From contig JBFXGD010000021.1 of assembly GCA_050178385.1 (NCBI GenBank), positions 1 to 33,265 on the forward strand: DNA of 33,265 nucleotides, read 5' to 3'. The position numbers and the translations under genes are program-made. The DNA comes from Calditrichaceae bacterium (lineage in GTDB: Bacteria > Calditrichota > Calditrichia > Calditrichales > JBFXGD01). The notes beneath the pieces are model-generated. The model searched no databases, was not told the DNA's origin, and worked only from the letters and a program-made list of their open reading frames with translations. Numbering within the stretch: the first letter of the stretch is position 1; each line of letters begins with the position of its first letter. Shown one piece after another: positions 5,755 through 25,602 of this stretch.

Positions 5755-6673
5755 GGTGTTTGACGATTTGTCCGCTCTGATAACGGAAGGGCGGAATCCG
5801 CGGACGACTAATATTGATTTGATGAGTACTGATGAAATCATACAATTAATAAATGATGAAGACAGGGTGGTCGCGGAAGCGGTTAAGAAAGAATTGCCAA
5901 AAATTTCCCGCGCAGTGGATATGATTGTTGGCGCGTTCAGGGAACAAGGCCGTTTAATTTATGTCGGCGCAGGCACATCGGGAAGGCTCGGTATGTATGA
6001 CGCGGCTGAATGTCCACCGACTTTTGGAGTCGATCCGGAGATGGTGACCGCGATTATCGCCGGAGGCAGCAATGCCCTGGTTGTATCGATCGAAGGGGCT
6101 GAAGATGATGAAATGGCCGGACGAGAAGATTTGAGGCGCGTGCTAAAATCAAACAAAGATGTGGTTTGCGGGATCGCCGCGAGCGCCAGAACACCATATG
6201 TGAGAGGCGCTCTTGATGAAGCGGGGGCCGCCGGAGCAAAAAAAATCATAATTGTCTGTAATCCCGCAGAAGAATTAAAAATTGATGTTGATGTTGTTAT
6301 TGGGCCTGTTACCGGCCCGGAAGTCATTATGGGATCCACAAGAATGAAAGCAGGGTCAGCTCAAAAGATGATCTTAAATATGCTTACCACTGCATCGATG
6401 GTAAAAATTGGTAAAGTTTATGAAAATCTTATGGTCGATTTAAAGCTGAATTCCAAAAAGCTTACCGAACGGGCCAAAAAACTGATAATGATTGCGGCAG
6501 CCGTTGATTATGAAAAAGCGTCTGATCTGCTTGTCAATTCGGGCGGGAGTGTAAAAACAGCAATTTTTATGGGCAAAACGGGCTGCTCAGTTAGCGATGC
6601 CCGTAATTTTATAGACCAAAGTGATGGTTTTCTGAGAAAGGCAATCCGGGACTGGGAATTGTCGGAAGGTTAA
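5741..6673 (+). CDS. murQ: N-acetylmuramic acid 6-phosphate etherase
   Basis: TEGRNP, GAGTSGRLG, DAAECPPTFG, EGAED, GPEVIMGSTRMKAG, NLMVD. Likely start is ATG 5741. Confidence 0.97.
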   Translation: MPENKVFDDLSALITEGRNPRTTNIDLMSTDEIIQLINDEDRVVAEAVKKELPKISRAVDMIVGAFREQGRLIYVGAGTSGRLGMYDAAECPPTFGVDPEMVTAIIAGGSNALVVSIEGAEDDEMAGREDLRRVLKSNKDVVCGIAASARTPYVRGALDEAGAAGAKKIIIVCNPAEELKIDVDVVIGPVTGPEVIMGSTRMKAGSAQKMILNMLTTASMVKIGKVYENLMVDLKLNSKKLTERAKKLIMIAAAVDYEKASDLLVNSGGSVKTAIFMGKTGCSVSDARNFIDQSDGFLRKAIRDWELSEG

Positions 6674-7848
6674 ATCGCGCTTTGAATGGCCGGGTCATGT
6701 ATTGATTCAAATTTCAAATACTTTTCGTACATGGGTTTGGACAGGTTCATTTCAGGAAACCGATTATATAAGCTTTCCGCAAACATAAAATCGAGGTGAT
6801 TCGTATTGATCGGAGCGAAACCCATAACTTTTTTCCAGATTTCCTTGTCTTCCATACAAAAATAAGTGAATACATCCGGAGAATAATAACGAATCCGGCT
6901 ATAAATTGATCTGAACATTTTTAGACGAATCGGTTTAAAGTAACGTGTCTTTTGGTCTTTACCTATAATTTGTTCACCTCGTATGATTGATGTTCCCGGG
7001 AACCGGTCTCTGATTGTTTCTTTAAGAGAAGGCGGGAACCGTAAACCACCTATGCTGATCCAAACAATGTTGTCGGGATTTATATGCTGAAAAAGCTGAT
7101 CAATAACATTGGAATATCCTGATTCCCATTCATCATAAAAAATAACCGGGTCAAAATGAAATCCCAGCTTAAAGCCCATTTTCTGAGCCTGAACCGCAGA
7201 TTCCAAACGCTCTTTAAGACTGGCGGTTTTAAATTCAATATTTGTTATAACATGATCAGGGTTTAATGACCAGGATAACACTAAATTTTCGGTTTTATTT
7301 TGGAACGATTCCAAATGACGCACATGGTTTGTTTTTGATTTAAGTTCAAAAAAAACATTATGTTTGGTGTCAAAATATGGAATAAGCAAAGAGGAAATTC
7401 CCGTATATTCTTCCAGCGCCAGGCTGTCAGCCAGTTCTCCGGTCCCAATCCGGATAATGCGATCGGGAAATTTCGCTGTAAAGGCGTCAAATTCTTCCAG
7501 AATCTTGTAGTAATTGGCATAAACAGTAAGAACAGAACTGTTCATATAACTCTGAAGAATGCAATAGGCGCAATCAAGCGGGCAGCCGGTTGTCTCGTTA
7601 ATAACCTGGTAATTACAGCAAATATAATCGTGGGATGTTCCCGGGCAGGGCTTACAAAAATTGCCTTTATAATTTGTCACGTAAAGGAGGCGCTTGCCCT
7701 CGGCGATGGAAGATGATTCAAGTTTCTCCGGTGGCGAATCAGAAATGGTAATAGGTATATTTGAAAGTTTGGAGATGATATTCTTCGCAAACGCGCTATC
7801 CCGTACATCCCGATTAATATATATATGTGAAATGGAAATCGGTTTCAT
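6670..7848 (-). CDS. Spore photoproduct lyase (SplB)-like radical SAM protein
   Basis: CxxxCxxC (GCPLDCAYC) followed by LQ, TVYAN, GELADSLALE, ELKSK, WSLNP, ERL..A, GFHFDP and KTRYF, which is the SPL-family layout. Confidence 0.88.
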   Translation of the reverse strand: MKPISISHIYINRDVRDSAFAKNIISKLSNIPITISDSPPEKLESSSIAEGKRLLYVTNYKGNFCKPCPGTSHDYICCNYQVINETTGCPLDCAYCILQSYMNSSVLTVYANYYKILEEFDAFTAKFPDRIIRIGTGELADSLALEEYTGISSLLIPYFDTKHNVFFELKSKTNHVRHLESFQNKTENLVLSWSLNPDHVITNIEFKTASLKERLESAVQAQKMGFKLGFHFDPVIFYDEWESGYSNVIDQLFQHINPDNIVWISIGGLRFPPSLKETIRDRFPGTSIIRGEQIIGKDQKTRYFKPIRLKMFRSIYSRIRYYSPDVFTYFCMEDKEIWKKVMGFAPINTNHLDFMFAESLYNRFPEMNLSKPMYEKYLKFESIHDPAIQSAI

Positions 7849-8816
7849 TAAATATCCAGAAGCTCCTTAAGTGATGCAATATTTTTTTTAGTGTTAAGCA
7901 GACTGAGAGCAGACGTAAAGTCATTCTCATCTTTAATATTTATAATAAGTTGCAATCCCTCGGACTCGAATGAATTGTCAAATCTAATTTGAGCATTGGG
8001 CGGCAGATTTATATCTTTTGTTTTTTGTAATGCTTTTAGTCTGTGCTGTGATATGGCCGGATATCGTAATGAAAAAAGGGCGCTTTTTAGGTGTTGCGTT
8101 TTTTGGCTTTTTGTAAGCTGGTCATTTGATAAAACCACCCGCACGGAATCATGGCTAAGAATCTCTTCAATGCTCACCTTTTTATTCAACGCGGACTCAA
8201 AAACAAGTTCGCTGATATTGATCAATTCAACAAGGCGTACAGATAACTGGATCCCAATGTCAAAAATTGGTTGTAATTCGGCTTCGGATTTATCTAAGAG
8301 CGGGCGCAGTTGTCTGTAGGATGCGTTATATTTGTTTATATAATTTAAAAAAGGTTTAGGCCATTGCAGAATACGCTTGATTTTATCCATTTGTGATTCG
8401 TTGTGAGGAAGATTCAGCTGATTCCGCCATGCATAGAGTTCTTGTATTGGAACGGAATTAATACCTAAAAAATGAAAAATGGATATTTTTTGATACAGGT
8501 TGGGTTCTGAATCATAATTCAGTGAAAAAAGCCGAATTTTTGCGATTTTCTCAAATCCAAAGGAAGAATCCAAAACAATGACCGGAACGGATTTTAGGGA
8601 AAGATCGGCGGCAATATTCAGTCGTTTGTAGCCGTCGATAACATATATACGATCTTTATTAATAAAACAAATTAATGGGCTTAGAATCCCAAATTGGTAG
8701 ATGGATGAACGAAGTTGGCCTGATTCAGGTGACGAATTAATGTCAAAATCCGGCTCCAAATGAATTTCATTCACATTTAAAGATTTATTTTGATTCAGGT
8801 TTTTCATATGCACCAC
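7848..8816 (-). CDS. ParB/Srx N-terminal domain protein (divergent ParB-like)
   Basis: LRSSIYQFGILSPL (box I-like), IDGYKRL (box II-like), VPVIVL, then a helical region. Likely start is ATG 8807. Its stop overlaps the next start (TAATG). Confidence 0.8.
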   Translation of the reverse strand: MVHMKNLNQNKSLNVNEIHLEPDFDINSSPESGQLRSSIYQFGILSPLICFINKDRIYVIDGYKRLNIAADLSLKSVPVIVLDSSFGFEKIAKIRLFSLNYDSEPNLYQKISIFHFLGINSVPIQELYAWRNQLNLPHNESQMDKIKRILQWPKPFLNYINKYNASYRQLRPLLDKSEAELQPIFDIGIQLSVRLVELINISELVFESALNKKVSIEEILSHDSVRVVLSNDQLTKSQKTQHLKSALFSLRYPAISQHRLKALQKTKDINLPPNAQIRFDNSFESEGLQLIINIKDENDFTSALSLLNTKKNIASLKELLDI

Positions 8817-13739: not shown

Positions 13740-15218
13740 ATGAAACAGTTCAAAATTTTATATCTGGCATCAGAAGTGGCACCTTTTGCAAAGGCGGGCG
13801 GCTTAGCGGATGTCACCGGCGCTTTGCCAAAAGCGCTAAAAGGGTTGAACCAGGAAATTCGTGTCATGATGCCCAAATATAAATTTATTAATGAAAGAAA
13901 GTTTGTACTAAGGGAAGTTATCAGATTGAAAGAAATTCCGGTTACGATTAACGGACGCACTGAAATCGCCAATGTGAAATCCGCATTTTTACCGGATAGC
14001 AAGGTTCAGATATATTTTATTGAAATCGCCGATTTCTTCTCACGCCCGGGAATATATGCAGATCCCAACACCGGAGAACCTTATGAAGATAATGCCGAAA
14101 GATTTGCCTTTTTCTCTAAAGCGGCTATGGAAACATTAAAAATATTGTCATGGCAGCCCGACGCAATACATTGTAATGACTGGCAAACGGCCTGCGTCCC
14201 TGTTTATCTCAAAACTCTCTACCAGGGTGATCCTTTTTTTAAGGGCGTAAAAACAATATATACTATTCATAATCTGACTTCTCAGGGGGCGTTTGAAACA
14301 ATTAAGGCCAAGCCGATTGAATTTGATGAGAGCCAGGTCAAAGAAGGTGGAATGTTCTACAAGGATGGAATGCTGAACCTCACGAAAGGCGCAATCTACT
14401 TTTCGGATTTCATTACTACCGTTTCCGGAAATTATGCGTCAGAGATCATTAGTGATGCTGAATTCGGGTTTGGATTCGGCAAGCTTTTGAAGGAGATGGG
14501 TGAAAAATTTGAAGGTATTCTTAACGGTGTGGATTACACGGTTTGGACACCGGATACGGATAGATTAATTCCAAATCAGTATACTATGGAAGATATGTCG
14601 GGAAAGGAAGAGAACAAGAAAGCCCTTTTGCTCCGACTCGGAATGGAAAGCAAACCGGAAGCGCCTGTCATCAGTTTGGTCTCCAGAATTTCAGCACAAA
14701 AAGGACTGGATCTTGTCGCCGATGCTTTGGATGATTTGCTGAAGATGGATTTGCATCTATGCTTCATTGGTGATGGTGAACCGGCGCTTATAGATAAAAT
14801 AACAACCTATCATAAAAAATATCCGGACAAAATCAGTCTCAATGTAAATTATGATGAAAAAATGGTACATCTGGCCTTGGCCGGATCTGATCTGTATCTG
14901 ATGCCATCAAAATATGAACCATGCGGATTAAATCAGATATACAGCATGAAATACGGAACTATTCCAATCGTGTCGGCTGTCGGAGGGCTTTATGATACTG
15001 TCGATGACATAGATATGGAATCGGGTGACGGCACCGGTTTTTTAATTGAAAGTCTCTCATCAAAGGGTATAATTGATGCAGTCAAAAAAGCGCTGTCTTT
15101 GTACCGGAATAAAAAAGTGTGGGCTGATTTGCAAAAGCGTGTAATGGTTGAAGATTTTTCATGGGAAGTTTCTGCCAACCGTTATGTTGATATATATGAA
15201 AAAGTCATAACTGATTAA
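13740..15218 (+). CDS. glgA: Glycogen synthase (GT5)
   Basis: SEVAPFAKAGGLADV, DNAERF, HCNDWQT, TIHN, GILNGVD, QKG, PSKYEPCGLNQ, FSW. Confidence 0.95.
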   Translation: MKQFKILYLASEVAPFAKAGGLADVTGALPKALKGLNQEIRVMMPKYKFINERKFVLREVIRLKEIPVTINGRTEIANVKSAFLPDSKVQIYFIEIADFFSRPGIYADPNTGEPYEDNAERFAFFSKAAMETLKILSWQPDAIHCNDWQTACVPVYLKTLYQGDPFFKGVKTIYTIHNLTSQGAFETIKAKPIEFDESQVKEGGMFYKDGMLNLTKGAIYFSDFITTVSGNYASEIISDAEFGFGFGKLLKEMGEKFEGILNGVDYTVWTPDTDRLIPNQYTMEDMSGKEENKKALLLRLGMESKPEAPVISLVSRISAQKGLDLVADALDDLLKMDLHLCFIGDGEPALIDKITTYHKKYPDKISLNVNYDEKMVHLALAGSDLYLMPSKYEPCGLNQIYSMKYGTIPIVSAVGGLYDTVDDIDMESGDGTGFLIESLSSKGIIDAVKKALSLYRNKKVWADLQKRVMVEDFSWEVSANRYVDIYEKVITD

Positions 15219-15273
15219 ATTTTAGGCGCTTATGATCGATGGATGGCATTTTTAATACAACGGGAACAGGTGC

Positions 15274-15843
15274 ATGAATCGAGCGGTATTTCTGGACAGG
15301 GATGGAACCATAAATGAAGAAATGGGTTATATAAACCACGTCAAAAGGTTCCGGTTATTTGAATTTGTTCCAGATGCCATTAAGATATTTAATTCTCTTG
15401 AATACAAGGTAATAGTGGTTACAAATCAATCCGGGCTTGGAAGGGGTTATTTTGATGAACAGCTTCTGGATGATGTTCACAAGACTCTTATTAGAACGGT
15501 ATCAGAGAATGGCGGAGTGATAGATAGGATCTACTATTGTCCGCATCATCCAACTGAAGCAATAGAAAAATACAGGATGGATTGTAATTGCAGGAAACCA
15601 AAGACCGGAATGATTGATCGGGCCAGGGAAGATTTTAATATCGACATAAAGAATTCGTTTATGATCGGTGATCGGTTTAAGGATGTAGAATTTGGAAAAA
15701 AAGTGGGATTGCGGACAATCATGGTGCTGACGGGTTATGGGTTGGGAGAATATACTTTTCAAAAAAAAGACTGGCCGTATCTCCCGGATCATGTGGCGGA
15801 TAATCTGCTGGAAGCCGCAAAAATAATTAAAAAACTAGTCTGA
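15274..15843 (+). CDS. gmhB: D-glycero-D-manno-heptose-1,7-bisphosphate phosphatase-like HAD hydrolase
   Basis: FLDRDGTIN, VTNQSG, CPHHP...CNCRKP Zn site, IGDR..D. Confidence 0.85.
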   Translation: MNRAVFLDRDGTINEEMGYINHVKRFRLFEFVPDAIKIFNSLEYKVIVVTNQSGLGRGYFDEQLLDDVHKTLIRTVSENGGVIDRIYYCPHHPTEAIEKYRMDCNCRKPKTGMIDRAREDFNIDIKNSFMIGDRFKDVEFGKKVGLRTIMVLTGYGLGEYTFQKKDWPYLPDHVADNLLEAAKIIKKLV

Positions 15844-15924
15844 GATTCCAATATGGAATACAACAGATTAGCATAAAAATTGAATAATAAATTAGAAAAC
15901 TCAAAATTATCACTCAGGGATGGT

Positions 15925-17130
15925 ATGAAATCTAAGCTGATATTAATTTCAATTGTGTTTTTGGCATCACTATGGGGATGCTCAGATTTGGAAGATACAC
16001 CTTCCAGCGCGGAATTTAATCTAAATGATCGCTATGGATCATTTGTAATTGATACCATATACGCGGTGAAAGATACCTTTATCGTTGGGAATTATGCCGA
16101 TACAGATCTTTCGGAAAAACTGTCAGTAGGCAAAATTGACGGAATCGAGGCCAGTTTTGTTATCAAAGTTCTTAGCTTTCCGGATAGTACGCTCAGTTTG
16201 GATTCCGCCTATATATTGCTTACCGGAGTGGGTACCTTTTCAAGGGATATTCAGAATATTGATCTAAAAATTTATGAAGTAGAGAAAGAATGGGAAAAAG
16301 ATGTCAATTTGGATGAAACGTGGCATTATTATAATCCATCGACAGATCCGATAGTCAATTATTCCGTGAATGTGGATGATACAACGGAACATAAAATTTT
16401 AATAGACCCGGAAGTAGTTTTAGGCTGGCGGGCAAGTCAGGAGATCAACAATGGGCTCTATTTTAAAGCAGCTGAAAATACAGACGGTGTAATAAAAGAG
16501 TTCGGATCTTTTAATTCGAGCACTAGTTTTCCGAAGATGGTATATGTAATGAGTACTGACACATCAACTGTTCGGGATACAATTGATGTAGGATTGGATG
16601 CGACAATATTTGATTATCCCGGTGATGGAAGCGGTGTATTCGATCTCAAATCAAACGAAGATAAATTATTTGTATCGAGCGGAGTTCTTGTACATTCATT
16701 TTTTAAATTTGATTTTGCGGAAATTCCAAAAACAGCCCTGATCGATCAGGTGATTTTAGAGGTCGAGACAGATGATGATAATGATCTTGAAAATCCAGGC
16801 CATTCGGCATCGTTTTATATTCGATCAGTTACTGAGGCGAGCCAGGATTTAAGTACATATGAAATTGATTCCTTGTTTACGCTATATGCTGATTTGAATT
16901 ACCTGCATTCTGAAGAAGATGGTAAGCTGGTGACTTCTGAATCCAGCAGGTCAAGTTTTGGAAAAAGTCTCATTCAGCTGATTGTAGATGGATCTGTTAC
17001 CAATGAATGGCTATATCTGCAGTATATATCAGAGCTTACAGATTTTTCGGTTAAAAAATTTCGCGGTTTAGAATCGTATGTTAATCATCCGCCAAGGATC
17101 ATTGTCAAATATTTTAACGTAGAACGATAA
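15925..17130 (+). CDS. Acidic lipoprotein, DUF4270-like
   Basis: Signal MKSKLILISIVFLASLWG/C (lipobox), acidic residues after the Cys, beta-rich body with DSAYILL...LKIYEV...W and a C-terminal PRIIVKY. Family call is from memory. Confidence 0.7.
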   Translation: MKSKLILISIVFLASLWGCSDLEDTPSSAEFNLNDRYGSFVIDTIYAVKDTFIVGNYADTDLSEKLSVGKIDGIEASFVIKVLSFPDSTLSLDSAYILLTGVGTFSRDIQNIDLKIYEVEKEWEKDVNLDETWHYYNPSTDPIVNYSVNVDDTTEHKILIDPEVVLGWRASQEINNGLYFKAAENTDGVIKEFGSFNSSTSFPKMVYVMSTDTSTVRDTIDVGLDATIFDYPGDGSGVFDLKSNEDKLFVSSGVLVHSFFKFDFAEIPKTALIDQVILEVETDDDNDLENPGHSASFYIRSVTEASQDLSTYEIDSLFTLYADLNYLHSEEDGKLVTSESSRSSFGKSLIQLIVDGSVTNEWLYLQYISELTDFSVKKFRGLESYVNHPPRIIVKYFNVER

Positions 17131-17156
17131 TCTTAAAAAATGAATTGGACCAGTGA

Positions 17157-18362
17157 ATGAAACGAAATATTTTGATTTCTCTTTTACTTCTTTTAAATAT
17201 GTCTTACGCCGGTGAATCGATGTTTGGTTTGGTCGATAATGGCGTAGGTTTTTTAAAAACGATAAATTCCGCCGCGGGACAGGGAAGATCCTATGAGATG
17301 GCTGTCAATGATTCTGTACAGTTAAATTATAGAAATTATGCAAACTGGACGAGTATCCCAAATACGTCATTTACCATTAAATTTGGTTATGACGCGATTT
17401 TTTCAGATGATCTTACAAATGATTATTATGGGGATGCCGGAAATTTTCAGGGTGGGTATCTGGCAATACCGATCCTGCAGAGAAAATTAATTCTTGGGGG
17501 TGGTATTCAGCCGATTTCAAAAGTAGAACAACGTATTGTCGATGAGACCAGTTATGATTTCGGTTCTACTACTGTTATAAAAGAAAATTTACTTATGGAT
17601 GGCGGCCTCGACAGGGCTCTGCTAAACCTTTCATACAGATTTAATATGCTAAGTTTCAGCCTTGGATGGGAATATACATTTGGTAATATAACAGAGAGTC
17701 TTGTTTTGGATATTGAGGACGAAACAACATCGCAATTGTACCTGAATTATGATAATTTATACTCCGGACATGGCATGGTGATTAACGCGTTCTCCGATAA
17801 TATAGATAATTTGAATCTGGGAGTGACCATCCGACCGGCGGTTGACCTGGATCTGGAGACAAAAGGCGATTCCAATTCTGAAATAATTGATAAAACCAGA
17901 AAAAGCACGGTAACTCTTCCGGCTGAATACAATTTTGGAATAGAATATCAATTTAGTAACCGCCTGGCGGCGGGCATGGATGTGATGTATCAGGATTGGA
18001 AGAACGGCTATAAAATCGATGGAAATAAAGTTGAAAACTATGAAAAATATTATAAAATTGGTGTAGGAATAGAAAGAAAATCAAGCGAGAAAAGGTTCAT
18101 AAGTTTAGGCCAGCAGATTGATTACAGAATGGGTCTTTATCTGAGCCAATTAAATATCACAAAAAATGATGAACCAGTGATGGAATATGGTCTGTCTCTC
18201 GGTTTTTCATTACCAATTCAAAGGTTCCGTTCCAAAATTGATTTTTCCGGAATCGTTGGTAAGCGCGGAAGTCTCTCTACCAATGGCCTTGAAGAGACAT
18301 TCGTCTCATTCGGTATATCGGTAAGCGCCAGTGAGAAATGGTTTGTGAAGCTTGACAAGTGA
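17157..18362 (+). CDS. Outer membrane beta-barrel protein, FadL/OmpP1-like
   Basis: Sec signal peptide, N-terminal plug-like segment (N.ANW), amphipathic beta strands, LPAEYNFGIEY, YRMG, C-terminal EKWFVK. Confidence 0.75.
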   Translation: MKRNILISLLLLLNMSYAGESMFGLVDNGVGFLKTINSAAGQGRSYEMAVNDSVQLNYRNYANWTSIPNTSFTIKFGYDAIFSDDLTNDYYGDAGNFQGGYLAIPILQRKLILGGGIQPISKVEQRIVDETSYDFGSTTVIKENLLMDGGLDRALLNLSYRFNMLSFSLGWEYTFGNITESLVLDIEDETTSQLYLNYDNLYSGHGMVINAFSDNIDNLNLGVTIRPAVDLDLETKGDSNSEIIDKTRKSTVTLPAEYNFGIEYQFSNRLAAGMDVMYQDWKNGYKIDGNKVENYEKYYKIGVGIERKSSEKRFISLGQQIDYRMGLYLSQLNITKNDEPVMEYGLSLGFSLPIQRFRSKIDFSGIVGKRGSLSTNGLEETFVSFGISVSASEKWFVKLDK

Positions 18363-18388
18363 TGCGTGAATAATGGAGGATTCAGAAA

Positions 18389-19666
18389 ATGATTAAAATG
18401 AAATGGATGTTAATCATCATGGTTTTAATGACAGTGGTCGCGTTTGATTCCCCGCTGCAAGCTCAGGTGGATGAAATACTAGAGCTGGATTCCACTGAAC
18501 AGACCGTAGATAATAATTGTGAACCTGAAAATTTAGATACACCTTATGATAAGTATGCAAACTCTGAGTTTGAAACGAGTGTTCCAATGCTGTATAACTT
18601 CGGAACAGAGCACTTTAAAAATAAAAATTACAGGGAAGCATTGCCTTATTTATGGAAAGTCTTTTTGCATGATGAAGGCAAAAGAGCGCGTTTATCCATA
18701 AGTAAAATAGCGCAAATATATTTTGAAGAACAAAAAGTGGATAGTGTTTTAATATCTTGTTTCAGGGGACTGGAACGTTTTCCGGAATTGATTCTTCTTC
18801 ATTATTATGCAGGCTATATTCAGGATAAGCTAGGCAAATTCAGATGCGCGATTCCTCACTATGAAAAACTGGTTGAAAGTGATTCTACAAATAAAGCTTA
18901 TTTGAAAACCATTGCCTTTCTCTATTATAAAGATGAAGATGAAAGAGCAATAGAAATGCAGGAAAGATTGGTCGCCCTTGATCCGGGTAATGCGGAAGAG
19001 GCAAATTCCCTGGCCCAGTATAATGTATATTTCCATGGAGCCGGAGCCGGACTGGATGCTTATAAGCAGTCCTATTTCAATGATCCGGAAAATGTGGATG
19101 TTGCCTTGAGTTACGGCCGGTCCGCTTTGGAATCTGGAAAATATAAAGAGTCTCTTGAGCCGTTGACCAAAGTAATTGCAAAAAATCCATCGACAAAGGC
19201 GTTGACACTCAGAGCATCTGCCTATGAAAATCTGGGCAGATTTAATGACGCTATTTCTGACTATAAGAAAGTTTTGGAAAAAGAATCAAACAATGCGGAT
19301 GTCATGTTAAATATTTCATTGAATTACCGCTCACTTAACAGTTTCAGCAATGCGAACTACTGGATAAGTAAAGCGCTGAGCGCCAAACCGGGTTATGGTT
19401 TTGCTTATATTATCAGAGGCGAACTATATGAATCTGCCGTCTCCTATTGTCAGAGTCAGAGAGGTGGTAAAGTGAAATATGAGGATAAGCTGGTATATGA
19501 AAAAGCGGATTTAGAATATGATAAAGCAAAGAATGATCCCATCTTCCGTTCAAAGGCGACGACTAAGCAAAACAATTTAAAGCCGTTTCTACCGACAAAA
19601 GAAGATAAATTTATGCACAAAAACGCTAAAATAAATGATGACTGTTTTAGCTGGATCGAGAATTAG
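18389..19666 (+). CDS. Secreted tetratricopeptide repeat protein
   Basis: Signal peptide, multiple TPR repeats (e.g. RASAYENLGRFNDAISDYKKVLEKE). SD GGAGGA. Confidence 0.88.
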   Translation: MIKMKWMLIIMVLMTVVAFDSPLQAQVDEILELDSTEQTVDNNCEPENLDTPYDKYANSEFETSVPMLYNFGTEHFKNKNYREALPYLWKVFLHDEGKRARLSISKIAQIYFEEQKVDSVLISCFRGLERFPELILLHYYAGYIQDKLGKFRCAIPHYEKLVESDSTNKAYLKTIAFLYYKDEDERAIEMQERLVALDPGNAEEANSLAQYNVYFHGAGAGLDAYKQSYFNDPENVDVALSYGRSALESGKYKESLEPLTKVIAKNPSTKALTLRASAYENLGRFNDAISDYKKVLEKESNNADVMLNISLNYRSLNSFSNANYWISKALSAKPGYGFAYIIRGELYESAVSYCQSQRGGKVKYEDKLVYEKADLEYDKAKNDPIFRSKATTKQNNLKPFLPTKEDKFMHKNAKINDDCFSWIEN

Positions 19667-23277: not shown

Positions 23278-24309
23278 ATGGACGATAATTCTCCAAAAAT
23301 ATTAATAATTCGGCTAAGTTCCATCGGCGATGTATTATTAACCACTCCATTTATCAGACAAACCCGCATCAAATTTCCAACGGCCCGGATAGACTTTGCG
23401 GTTAAAAAGGAATTTGAGGACCTGATAAGGTACAATCCGCATATTAACGATGTTTACACCTTTGATAAATACAATAAAAATAAGGAATTAAAATCTCTCC
23501 AAAAGCAATTTAAAGCTGTTGATTACAACTATATATTTGATCTGCACAATAACTTCCGGTCAAAATTTCTGTTAAAAGCAGGGACCAATGCCCAAAAAGC
23601 CCATATCCGTAAAGACAAATTGAAACGCGCGCTTCTGGTTTACACTAAAATAAATCTATATAGCGAAGTCAAACCTATTCCGCTGAGGTATCTGGATGTC
23701 GGAAAAATAGCAGAGATAGAAAATGATTTTCAGGGGCTTGAAATTTTCTGGAAAAATGAGATTGAAGAGAAAGTTGACAGGATCCTGAAGGAAAAAGGTG
23801 TGGCGGGTGATAGTGTCGTTATTGCCCCGGGCGCCGGATTTTTTACAAAACAATGGCCGATGGAATATTTTAAAGAGTTGACCGGGCTTTTTGTAGAAAA
23901 ACGTGATGAGAATATCATTATACTCGGCGGGAAAAATGAAATTGGCAGGTTTGATTCACTTGAAATTTCAGAAAAGGTGATTAATTTAACCGGAAAACTA
24001 AGTTTGCTGGAATCTGCCGCGGTATTATCGAGATCAAGGGCTGTTGTATCAAATGATTCCGGATTGATGCATATGGCGTCTGCCGTAAAAACGCCCGTTG
24101 TCGCAATATTTGGTTCGACCGTTAAAGAACTGGGATTCTTCCCATACAGAAGCAATTCGATAATAATTGAAAACAGGAATTTGAAATGCCGCCCATGTTC
24201 TCATATAGGAAGAAAGAAGTGTCCGCGGGGTCATTTTAAGTGCATGCGTGATATAAAACCCGAGCTGGTATTTAAAAATGTGCAATCAGTTTTGACGGGG
24301 AAGTTATAA
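23278..24309 (+). CDS. Glycosyltransferase family 9, LPS heptosyltransferase (WaaF-like)
   Basis: IIRLSSIGDVLLTTP, APGA...KQWP, NLTGKLSL, NDSGLMHMA, IFGST. Confidence 0.92.
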   Translation: MDDNSPKILIIRLSSIGDVLLTTPFIRQTRIKFPTARIDFAVKKEFEDLIRYNPHINDVYTFDKYNKNKELKSLQKQFKAVDYNYIFDLHNNFRSKFLLKAGTNAQKAHIRKDKLKRALLVYTKINLYSEVKPIPLRYLDVGKIAEIENDFQGLEIFWKNEIEEKVDRILKEKGVAGDSVVIAPGAGFFTKQWPMEYFKELTGLFVEKRDENIIILGGKNEIGRFDSLEISEKVINLTGKLSLLESAAVLSRSRAVVSNDSGLMHMASAVKTPVVAIFGSTVKELGFFPYRSNSIIIENRNLKCRPCSHIGRKKCPRGHFKCMRDIKPELVFKNVQSVLTGKL

Positions 24310-24312
24310 AAT

Positions 24313-25602
24313 ATGAAATGGGTAATGGGATTAGTATATACATACCTCGTTTTTCCGTGCATTCTGTTAATCGCAAAGACAGTAAGCCTGTTCAACAGCG
24401 ATATCAGAAAAGCTCTGAATCTGAGATATTGTGTTTTTGACGAACTGCGACGAATAAAAAATAAAATACCCCATCAAAATAAAATAGTTCTGCTGCATGC
24501 CGCTTCGATGGGTGAATTTGAACACGTAAAGCCATTAATAACAAAGATAAAATCGACATATAACACGTCAATAATTGTGACATTTTTTTCACCGTCCGCG
24601 TATGAAAACGTCAAACAGTATCCCGGTGTAGAGTTGTTTATTTATCTGCCTCTGGATAAGCGGTCAAACTGGCAAAAATTTTATGATATTTTAAAACCCG
24701 ATCTGATCATTATTTCAAAACATGATGTCTGGCCTAATCAAATATGGATGGCCGAGAAATACAGAATACCAATATTTCTCGTCAATGCTTCTTTGTCGAG
24801 GAATTCAAGCCGAACACGGTTCTGGATACGTTATTTCCTGAAATATGTGTATCGGTCGTTTGATCACATTTTTGCCATAAGCACTCAGGACATGGAAAGA
24901 TTCGCCAAATACTTTCCGCTTTGCCGCGTTTCAAAGATGGGAGATACAAAATTTGATCAGGTGCTGATCCGGAAAGACGAGGCGGCCTCAAAACATTTAA
25001 TTCCCGGACAGTGGACGGAAAACAATTTGATCATTCTCCTGGGAAGCATTTGGCCGGAGGATTCTGAACATATTCTGCCCGTTATCAGCACGATTTTAGA
25101 AAAAAAAGCCAATGTAAAGGTAATTATCGTTCCGCACCAGCCGTCGAATCACTTTATTGAGTCATTAAACGCCGGTATGCAGAAGTTCGATCCTGTACTT
25201 TTTACGGATCGCAGCCATCTTCGGGAATCACGTTTGTTGATAATTGATGTAGTCGGTGTGTTGGCGGATCTTTACAAATACGCGGATATCGCCTATGTGG
25301 GAGGCAGTTTTAAACAGGGGATCCATAATGTGATGGAACCGGCGATTTACAAGATACCGGTTCTTTACGGACCGGTTCATAAAAACTCATTCGAAGCAAT
25401 TAATTTGCATAAGGCCGGCGGCAGTGTTCTTTTGAATAATGAAAAAGATGGCCTGGCAATTTTGGAAGATTTAATAGGGAATGAAAATAAACGCGTTGAA
25501 ATTGGCAATATGGCGTATAAATTCGCCGTGGAAAATCTCGGCGCTACCGATAGAATTGTGAGAGAATGGGTTGATTATTTGTCTCAAACCGACCGCGGAT
25601 AG
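24313..25602 (+). CDS. waaA: 3-deoxy-D-manno-octulosonic acid (Kdo) transferase
   Basis: HAASMGEFE, TFFSPS, YLPLD, WPN, GDTKFD, AYVGGSF, HNVMEPA. Confidence 0.93.
   Translation: MKWVMGLVYTYLVFPCILLIAKTVSLFNSDIRKALNLRYCVFDELRRIKNKIPHQNKIVLLHAASMGEFEHVKPLITKIKSTYNTSIIVTFFSPSAYENVKQYPGVELFIYLPLDKRSNWQKFYDILKPDLIIISKHDVWPNQIWMAEKYRIPIFLVNASLSRNSSRTRFWIRYFLKYVYRSFDHIFAISTQDMERFAKYFPLCRVSKMGDTKFDQVLIRKDEAASKHLIPGQWTENNLIILLGSIWPEDSEHILPVISTILEKKANVKVIIVPHQPSNHFIESLNAGMQKFDPVLFTDRSHLRESRLLIIDVVGVLADLYKYADIAYVGGSFKQGIHNVMEPAIYKIPVLYGPVHKNSFEAINLHKAGGSVLLNNEKDGLAILEDLIGNENKRVEIGNMAYKFAVENLGATDRIVREWVDYLSQTDRG

Follow-up and report, generated by a model that had tools for sequence, protein, structure and literature searches.

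BAM, the machinery that assembles beta-barrels, is essential and a drug target. A 33,265-nucleotide stretch of DNA from a Calditrichaceae bacterium (contig JBFXGD010000021.1 of a genome that is 94% complete; hereafter the window) raises the question of whether this machinery carries additional subunits in the phylum Calditrichota, and which proteins these would be. At positions 15925–19666, inside a longer run of plus-strand genes, three co-directional genes encode a lipoprotein, an outer-membrane barrel and a tetratricopeptide repeat (TPR) protein. The original prediction for this locus read them as an operon like the bamH and bamG genes of Bacteroidota, with the TPR protein as a candidate further periplasmic component. 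The extension of BAM by BamG and BamH was described only in 2025, according to the accessible text of two papers (PMC12611786, PMC12578637), which is also the text on which our statements about them rest below. The descriptive part of the prediction is confirmed by the open reading frames (ORFs): all three proteins are exported, the C-terminal tails of the barrel and the TPR protein are as described, and gaps of 26 bp separate both the lipoprotein gene from the barrel gene and the barrel gene from the TPR gene. We conclude that the first two genes are very probably the Calditrichaceae BamH and BamG, with a probability of about 0.88.

The barrel has a single family match in NCBIfam, which is to BamG (NF053685; E 1.9e-50, 172.1 bits, profile positions 31–395 of 397). 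Compared with PDB sequences using phmmer at E ≤ 1, it finds three BamG chains only: 9n2d_B of Flavobacterium johnsoniae (E 3.2e-21, residues 4–398 against 4–405), chain F of the Bacteroides thetaiotaomicron BAM entries 9hiv/9hj3 (E 1.8e-11), and 9hjm_F of the Porphyromonas gingivalis complex (E 1e-4). No FadL, TodX, TbuX or PorV chain appears in that search, and a Pfam scan of the barrel at E ≤ 1 gives no Toluene_X match. The expectation of a BamG-like barrel is borne out in NCBIfam and in the PDB, where BamG is all that either returns. Within the genome the barrel is the top BamG match by a margin of more than 110 bits, the runner-up scoring 58 bits.

The ends of the barrel may carry the same signature. 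Its mature N-terminus reads GESMFG and its C-terminal end SEKWFVKLDK, and both an AGES.FG mature N-terminus and a C-terminal E.WF motif are kept in all eight aligned Calditrichota barrels. In the phmmer alignments WFVK is paired with WFVK in 9n2d_B and with WFFK in 9hiv_F, and the ends of the window barrel align with those of 9n2d_B. BamG is itself a member of the FadL superfamily (PMC12611786); conserved terminal extensions are used to separate it from FadL transporters, and the last residues of its C-terminal tail contact BamD (PMC12611786, PMC12578637). The window barrel resembles BamG of the solved BAM complexes from the Fibrobacterota–Chlorobiota–Bacteroidota (FCB) group (9n2d, 9hiv/9his, 9hjm) in being a FadL-type protein, in its full-length sequence similarity and, it seems, in its terminal motifs.

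The lipoprotein is far more divergent, and its assignment comes mainly from structure. Pfam yields no match at E ≤ 1 and a phmmer search of the PDB finds nothing; the NCBIfam DNRLRE domain matches at E 9.7e-9, barely above its cut-off. A word-based search recovers only six relatives, and a profile built from five of these recovers 585 sequences at E ≤ 0.001 from 1.84 billion representatives. Members of this family contain two tandem beta-sandwich domains of the CBM96/DNRLRE/disaggregatase type. When a profile of 69 family sequences is compared with the PDB, the sole significant match is 9hjm_G, the P. gingivalis DUF4270 protein (E 3.7e-5), in an alignment that covers positions 1–163, and no other PDB entry scores better than E 0.42. 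An AlphaFold (AF2) model computed from the 69-sequence alignment has a pLDDT of 92.8 and a pTM of 0.86. Foldseek against 350,542 PDB chains places 9n2d_C (E 3e-14), 9hjm_G (E 2.5e-13) and 9his_G (E 1.7e-12) at ranks one to three, which are all of the solved BamH chains, with rank four at E 3.5e-5. VIA-align superposes the model on these three chains with Z-scores of 21.9, 20.0 and 18.4 over 349, 337 and 334 residues (rmsd 5.4, 3.9 and 3.5), so that the alignments span both domains of the 401-residue protein. The best match to a single domain is a carbohydrate-binding module (CBM) that binds chondroitin sulfate, 8wab, at Z 14.3.

The N-terminus of the lipoprotein agrees with this assignment. 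Read from the sequence, the lipobox LWGC is followed by the mature start CSDLED, which is acidic after the cysteine; Cys19 is invariant in the 69 family sequences and the N-terminal tail is conserved in the family. Each of the lipoproteins BamH to BamK is described as carrying at least two acidic residues close to the lipid-anchor cysteine, as a signal for surface export (PMC12578637), and the acidic residues of the window protein fit this description, which we count in favor of BamH identity. The ORF starts at an ATG giving MKSKL, as do the database copies; a TTG at 15880 is also open. Like BamH, then, the lipoprotein combines a two-domain fold and a CBM-like first domain with a lipobox and an acidic N-terminal tail. 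It is the only BamH-like gene product in the genome, and a locus search with the five-sequence lipoprotein alignment returned Calditrichota loci only.

Several observations weigh against naming the pair BamG and BamH. Unlike NCBI-defined BamG, the barrel at 172 bits scores below the curated equivalog cut-off of 250, a number that is an annotation threshold and not a biological feature. No protein in the genome exceeds this cut-off; of 14 control genomes, one has a protein above it, and the profile rings in two (Caulobacter and Bacteroides). The Pfam DUF4270 model (PF14092) gives no match to the lipoprotein at E ≤ 1, matches nothing in the 94%-complete genome, fails to find five close relatives of the lipoprotein at E ≤ 10, and, in a scan of 54 family members, reaches no more than two, with scores of 20.5 and 16.3 bits that fall short of the cut-off of 27. 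Judged by its sequence, the lipoprotein is not assignable to DUF4270 as Pfam draws that family. With the solved BamH chains it shares only 12–14% of its residues, so its homology rests on the fold, the N-terminal profile match and the gene context. It differs from these chains in length too, with 401 residues against the 439–520 resolved in them. Finally, the SusD Pfam models PF07980 and PF14322 match nothing in the genome (other SusD models were untried), and this genus may therefore be an exception to the published link of BamG and BamH with SusCD clients. The earlier view of the lipoprotein as a BamH/DUF4270 relative stands with respect to the BamH fold, which fills the top three PDB positions, and the profile match to 9hjm_G; the Pfam DUF4270 model misses it.

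The genome also encodes candidates for the BAM core. BamA candidates were found, and a separate BamD on contig C34 scores 142 bits, above the TIGR03302 cut-off. A mechanism can be taken by homology from the complexes solved for F. johnsoniae, B. thetaiotaomicron and P. gingivalis. On this model BamG and BamH would extend the BamA–BamD core of the outer-membrane protein (OMP) insertase, as they do in Bacteroidota and the majority of other FCB phyla. The 14-strand FadL-type BamG barrel would pack on the back of the BamA barrel, with its conserved N-terminal tail threading its own lateral opening and its extracellular strands gripping BamH by the first domain and the N-terminal tail. The lipid anchor of BamH would wedge its acyl chains between the two barrels, and BamH may arch over the BamA seam as an extracellular canopy that helps to fold, or to control the quality of, OMPs with large external parts. 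[quoted passage not shown] If the canopy has particular clients here, we infer that such giant barrels are more plausible than SusCD.

The bamH-bamG pair of Calditrichota is already in print, and the window adds a genus to a system already known. According to Liu et al. (Nature 2025, PMC12611786), BamG and BamH are conserved in six of the seven other FCB phyla; for Caldithrix abyssi their Supplementary Table 1 gives Cabys_4206 and Cabys_3919 as BamG and Cabys_4207 as BamH. Adjacent BamG and BamH tags are given there for Ignavibacterium, Fibrobacter, Gemmatimonas, Salinibacter and Gracilimonas as well. Silale et al. (Nat Microbiol 2025, PMC12578637), in the text available, describe BamH as confined to Bacteroidota on the basis of a BLAST-type survey. 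The occurrence of the pair outside Bacteroidota was correctly predicted and is not new. Unlike the main bamG and bamH of Flavobacterium and Bacteroides, which are unlinked, the window genes are adjacent, and adjacency looks like the usual state of bamG and bamH outside Bacteroidia and Flavobacteriia.

Coordinates of the three genes and of neighboring features in the window, with the identity of homologs at seven more distant loci to the window protein.
Feature	Position	Strand	Basis	Identity to window protein
322-aa ORF beside a spore-photoproduct-lyase-like radical SAM gene	7848..8816	-	no Pfam or NCBIfam match	
Full-length glycogen synthase, glgA	13740..15218	+	Pfam Glyco_transf_5 E 2e-77, Glycos_transf_1	
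GmhB-like heptose-bisphosphate phosphatase (lipopolysaccharide core pathway)	15274..15843	+	NCBIfam NF006506 E 4.8e-52	
bamH-like surface lipoprotein, 401 aa	15925..17130	+	lipobox LWGC, Cys19, two beta-sandwich/CBM-like domains	29–33%
bamG-like FadL-type outer-membrane barrel, 401 aa	17157..18362	+	signal peptide, GES.FG mature N-terminus, E.WFV tail	39–45%
Exported TPR superhelix protein, 425 aa	18389..19666	+	Pfam TPR families, type I signal peptide	44–57%
rpiB				67–78%
glyA				76–83%
GT9 heptosyltransferase	23278..24309			
Kdo transferase	24313..25602		Glycos_transf_N	

The immediate surroundings of the three genes are given in the table. As predicted, glgA lies two genes upstream, with the GmhB-like gene between it and the group; the GmhB-like phosphatase, which adjoins bamH, scores 176.1 bits against an NF006506 cut-off of 178. 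Downstream, the TPR gene is followed by rpiB after 9 bp and rpiB by glyA after 10 bp, so tight packing fails to delimit a three-gene unit, and a consensus scan of the borders of the group gave no convincing promoter or terminator. Of the proposed bamH-bamG operon, the adjacent pair stands, and the bounds of a three-gene unit are less sharp than the spacing suggests. The heptosyltransferase and Kdo transferase genes lie about 4–5 kb downstream, with tatC between. Together with the GmhB-like gene they lend the neighborhood an envelope-biogenesis character. The ORF of 322 aa lies on the other side of glgA.

We surveyed the block in a sample of 61 genomes of the phylum, which represent eight families of a single class. 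The BamG-like protein is found in 59 of these, the BamH-like protein in 58 and the TPR protein in 60. Of the 59 genomes with BamG, 55 have the BamH-like gene immediately upstream of bamG and 56 have the TPR gene immediately downstream; the four loci without an adjacent BamH-like gene are interrupted by contig ends. In six of the exceptional cases the partner is on another contig, including all three for the TPR gene, and in the other (G056, where the BamG match is truncated) the partner was not found. None of the three proteins was matched in G025 (97% complete), and in G050 (87% complete) the TPR protein was matched and BamG and BamH were not; in both genomes this means not found rather than absent. 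All 11 loci that were fetched, from seven families, have the order bamH-bamG-TPR, and seven of them keep it though glgA, gmhB and rpiB are gone from the block. At the fetched loci that extend past the TPR gene (10 of 11), glyA still adjoins, and gene order here is therefore conservative in general. The lipoprotein is the fastest-evolving member of the block by sequence identity.

Beyond the phylum survey, a metagenome scan with the barrel alignment returned 19 loci, 13 of them Calditrichota-like and six from one distant lineage (L036–L041). All six have the order glgA-(gmhB)-bamH-bamG-rpiB-glyA-tatC with no TPR gene, rpiB following directly after the barrel; identity to the window is 23–27% for the barrel and 62–68% for glyA. 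Two scans of viral contigs, meant to extend the synteny to other phyla, returned no loci. The glycogen synthase gene is upstream of bamH in this distant lineage and in seven of the seven genome loci that reach that far. It stands directly before bamH or one gmhB-like gene away in the window (13740–17130), at loci L015–L021, L023, L024, L026 and L030, and at L036, L037, L039 and L040; the linkage is not kept in families f5–f7. The original prediction has a DUF4270 lipoprotein gene beside glycogen synthase in Bacteroidota as well. A literature search found no paper containing both "DUF4270" and "glycogen synthase".

What, then, is the third protein? It has a signal peptide ending in PLQA before Q, an acidic linker and about 9–10 TPR-like hairpins, and its AF2 model (pLDDT 92.4) is an all-helical superhelix. 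Its C-terminal tail in the window is LPTKEDKFMHKNAKINDDCFSWIEN, and the conserved pattern of the tail is PTKED.FMH...CY.WI. Across 50 sequences Cys44, Cys153, Cys354 and Cys419 are invariant, and a CA(I/V)PH motif and a C-terminal tail ending CY.W are near-invariant. From this conservation the four cysteines probably form two disulfides, predicted to lie in the periplasm. His157 is also invariant and His138 near-invariant, and with the CA(I/V)PH motif either disulfides or a metal site are possible. A preprint reportedly describes a MauE-centred disulfide-forming pathway in Calditrichota.

Similarity searches place the TPR protein in no particular family. Foldseek finds generic TPR arrays only, the best being designed consensus TPRs and the TPR domains of OGT and SPINDLY. 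Sub-threshold profile matches include TPR_Slam (31.5 bits; cut-off 35.2), tol_pal_ybgF, BepA and LapB, and no family-specific match emerges from Pfam, NCBIfam or Foldseek. We considered and rejected an identification as BamD: the protein has no lipobox, the genome's BamD lies elsewhere, and the protein is absent among the 25 BamD (TIGR03302) matches listed. It is like BamD, the TPR domain of BepA, CpoB/YbgF, the N-terminal TPR of Slam and PilF/PilW in being an exported TPR scaffold, and like these envelope factors it is encoded beside outer-membrane assembly genes. Unlike BamD it is a non-lipoprotein and is much longer, and it is set apart by its four invariant cysteines and by a C-terminal tail that is both conserved and distinctive. 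In the ESM Atlas, Fidelibacterota is the commonest known phylum among similar TPR clusters, and the original prediction has a TPR protein with a similar tail beside the FadL-like barrel in Bacteroidota; both are unconfirmed leads only.

Some genomes hold additional copies of the TPR gene. Some larger genomes, of family f7, have two or three, and in the two-copy genomes G010 and G011 one copy still follows bamG. The second copy of G010 (locus L053, 6566–7987) begins one base after the stop of a gene (5921–6565) for a YceI-like protein, a lipid- or polyisoprenoid-binding periplasmic protein, and a gene of the DsbD_2 family is close to the extra copy.

We somewhat favor the view that the TPR protein takes no direct part in BAM and is a periplasmic scaffold for some other process, held in place by a stable inherited gene order. 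The orthologous block of the distant lineage does without a TPR gene at all six loci, and glyA, a cytoplasmic housekeeping gene, holds its place in the block at the fetched loci that extend past the TPR gene. The TPR gene is closer to rpiB than to bamG, and a paralog has a YceI-like gene as its neighbor, with no BamG nearby. In fold the protein is a generic superhelix, a search for longer, fused barrel forms such as BamG-TPR turned up none (which is weak evidence), and the accessible accounts of BAM complexes purified from three Bacteroidota name BamD and no other TPR subunit (PMC12611786, PMC12578637). Against a purely positional explanation stand the near-constant location of the TPR gene behind bamG, with every exception on another contig; the persistence of all three genes at loci that glgA, gmhB and rpiB have left; the retention of one of two copies behind bamG in G010 and G011; and the export of the TPR protein along with both of its neighbors. 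A complex prediction for BamG (residues 19–401) with the TPR protein (26–425) gave an ipSAE of 0.00 in two runs without controls and counts neither way.

The competing possibility, that BAM as extended by BamG and BamH in Calditrichota, and possibly in neighboring FCB phyla, has in the TPR protein an unrecognized periplasmic subunit or a dedicated assembly factor, is tentative and in our view rather unlikely. By analogy with BamD in F. johnsoniae the protein could dock on the periplasmic C-terminal tail of BamG, or it could fill the role of BamP, which is restricted to Flavobacteriaceae. On our main reading, which does not depend on this possibility, the protein is a soluble periplasmic scaffold kept directly behind bamG phylum-wide, and our single likeliest guess at its function is that it assists envelope or OMP biogenesis in the periplasm, co-expressed with bamH and bamG. 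In the titles and abstract openings of the papers from 2025 on that a search returned, BamG is linked neither to Calditrichota nor to a TPR partner. The idea of a further periplasmic component survives in that the protein is exported and linked to the pair across the phylum; the linkage is not universal, and the protein remains a candidate only.

Two alternatives concern the pair itself. It could be a paralogous module of the BamG2-BamH2 type rather than a set of working BAM subunits. As far as the accessible text tells, neither the BAM complex nor the proteome of B. thetaiotaomicron showed the products of its putative BamH2-BamG2 operon, Bt1786-Bt1785 (PMC12578637). The window pair shares with it, and with Fjoh_1685-Fjoh_1686, the adjacent lipoprotein and barrel genes, in the same H-G order, and a shorter BamH-type lipoprotein, BamH2 being about 100 residues shorter than BamH (PMC12578637). 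We nevertheless think this improbable: unlike BamH2-BamG2, the window pair is the only copy in its genome, with one BamH-like gene and one strong BamG match and no other candidate for a main pair, and it is presumably the working one; the adjacent tags published for Ignavibacterium, Fibrobacter, Gemmatimonas, Salinibacter and Caldithrix also speak against it (PMC12611786). Still less credible is an ordinary FadL channel or PorV-type T9SS shuttle next to a cargo or unrelated carbohydrate-binding surface lipoprotein, an idea encouraged by the place of BamG in the FadL superfamily, the CBM96, DNRLRE and disaggregatase-repeat matches of the lipoprotein family and the SprA gene of the genome, and opposed by the lack of FadL, TodX, TbuX, PorV or Toluene_X matches in the searches above, the full-length two-domain structural match specific to BamH, and what look like terminal extensions of the kind by which the papers tell BamG from transporters. 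Neither refuting outcome named with the original prediction was seen: the lipoprotein and the barrel show similarity to BamH and BamG, and in the searches above the barrel matched no transporter or PorV chain. LptQR was considered for the pair as well and rejected, LptQ being an 8-strand barrel according to the accessible part of a preprint on the lipopolysaccharide translocon, which names no TPR subunit there.

To the picture of BAM the locus contributes little more than three points. For Calditrichota, bamH and bamG emerge as a stable adjacent pair. The lipoprotein lies beyond the reach of Pfam DUF4270, and surveys that use sequence only, such as the one that found BamH confined to Bacteroidota, will therefore under-count BamH. 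A third protein, the exported and much better conserved TPR protein, has travelled with the pair across the phylum, and the distant lineage that lacks it could act as a natural comparison without the TPR protein. Should the TPR protein have no part in BAM, the locus would be a matter of routine annotation; should it prove to belong to BAM, the machinery would gain a new subunit in the periplasm.

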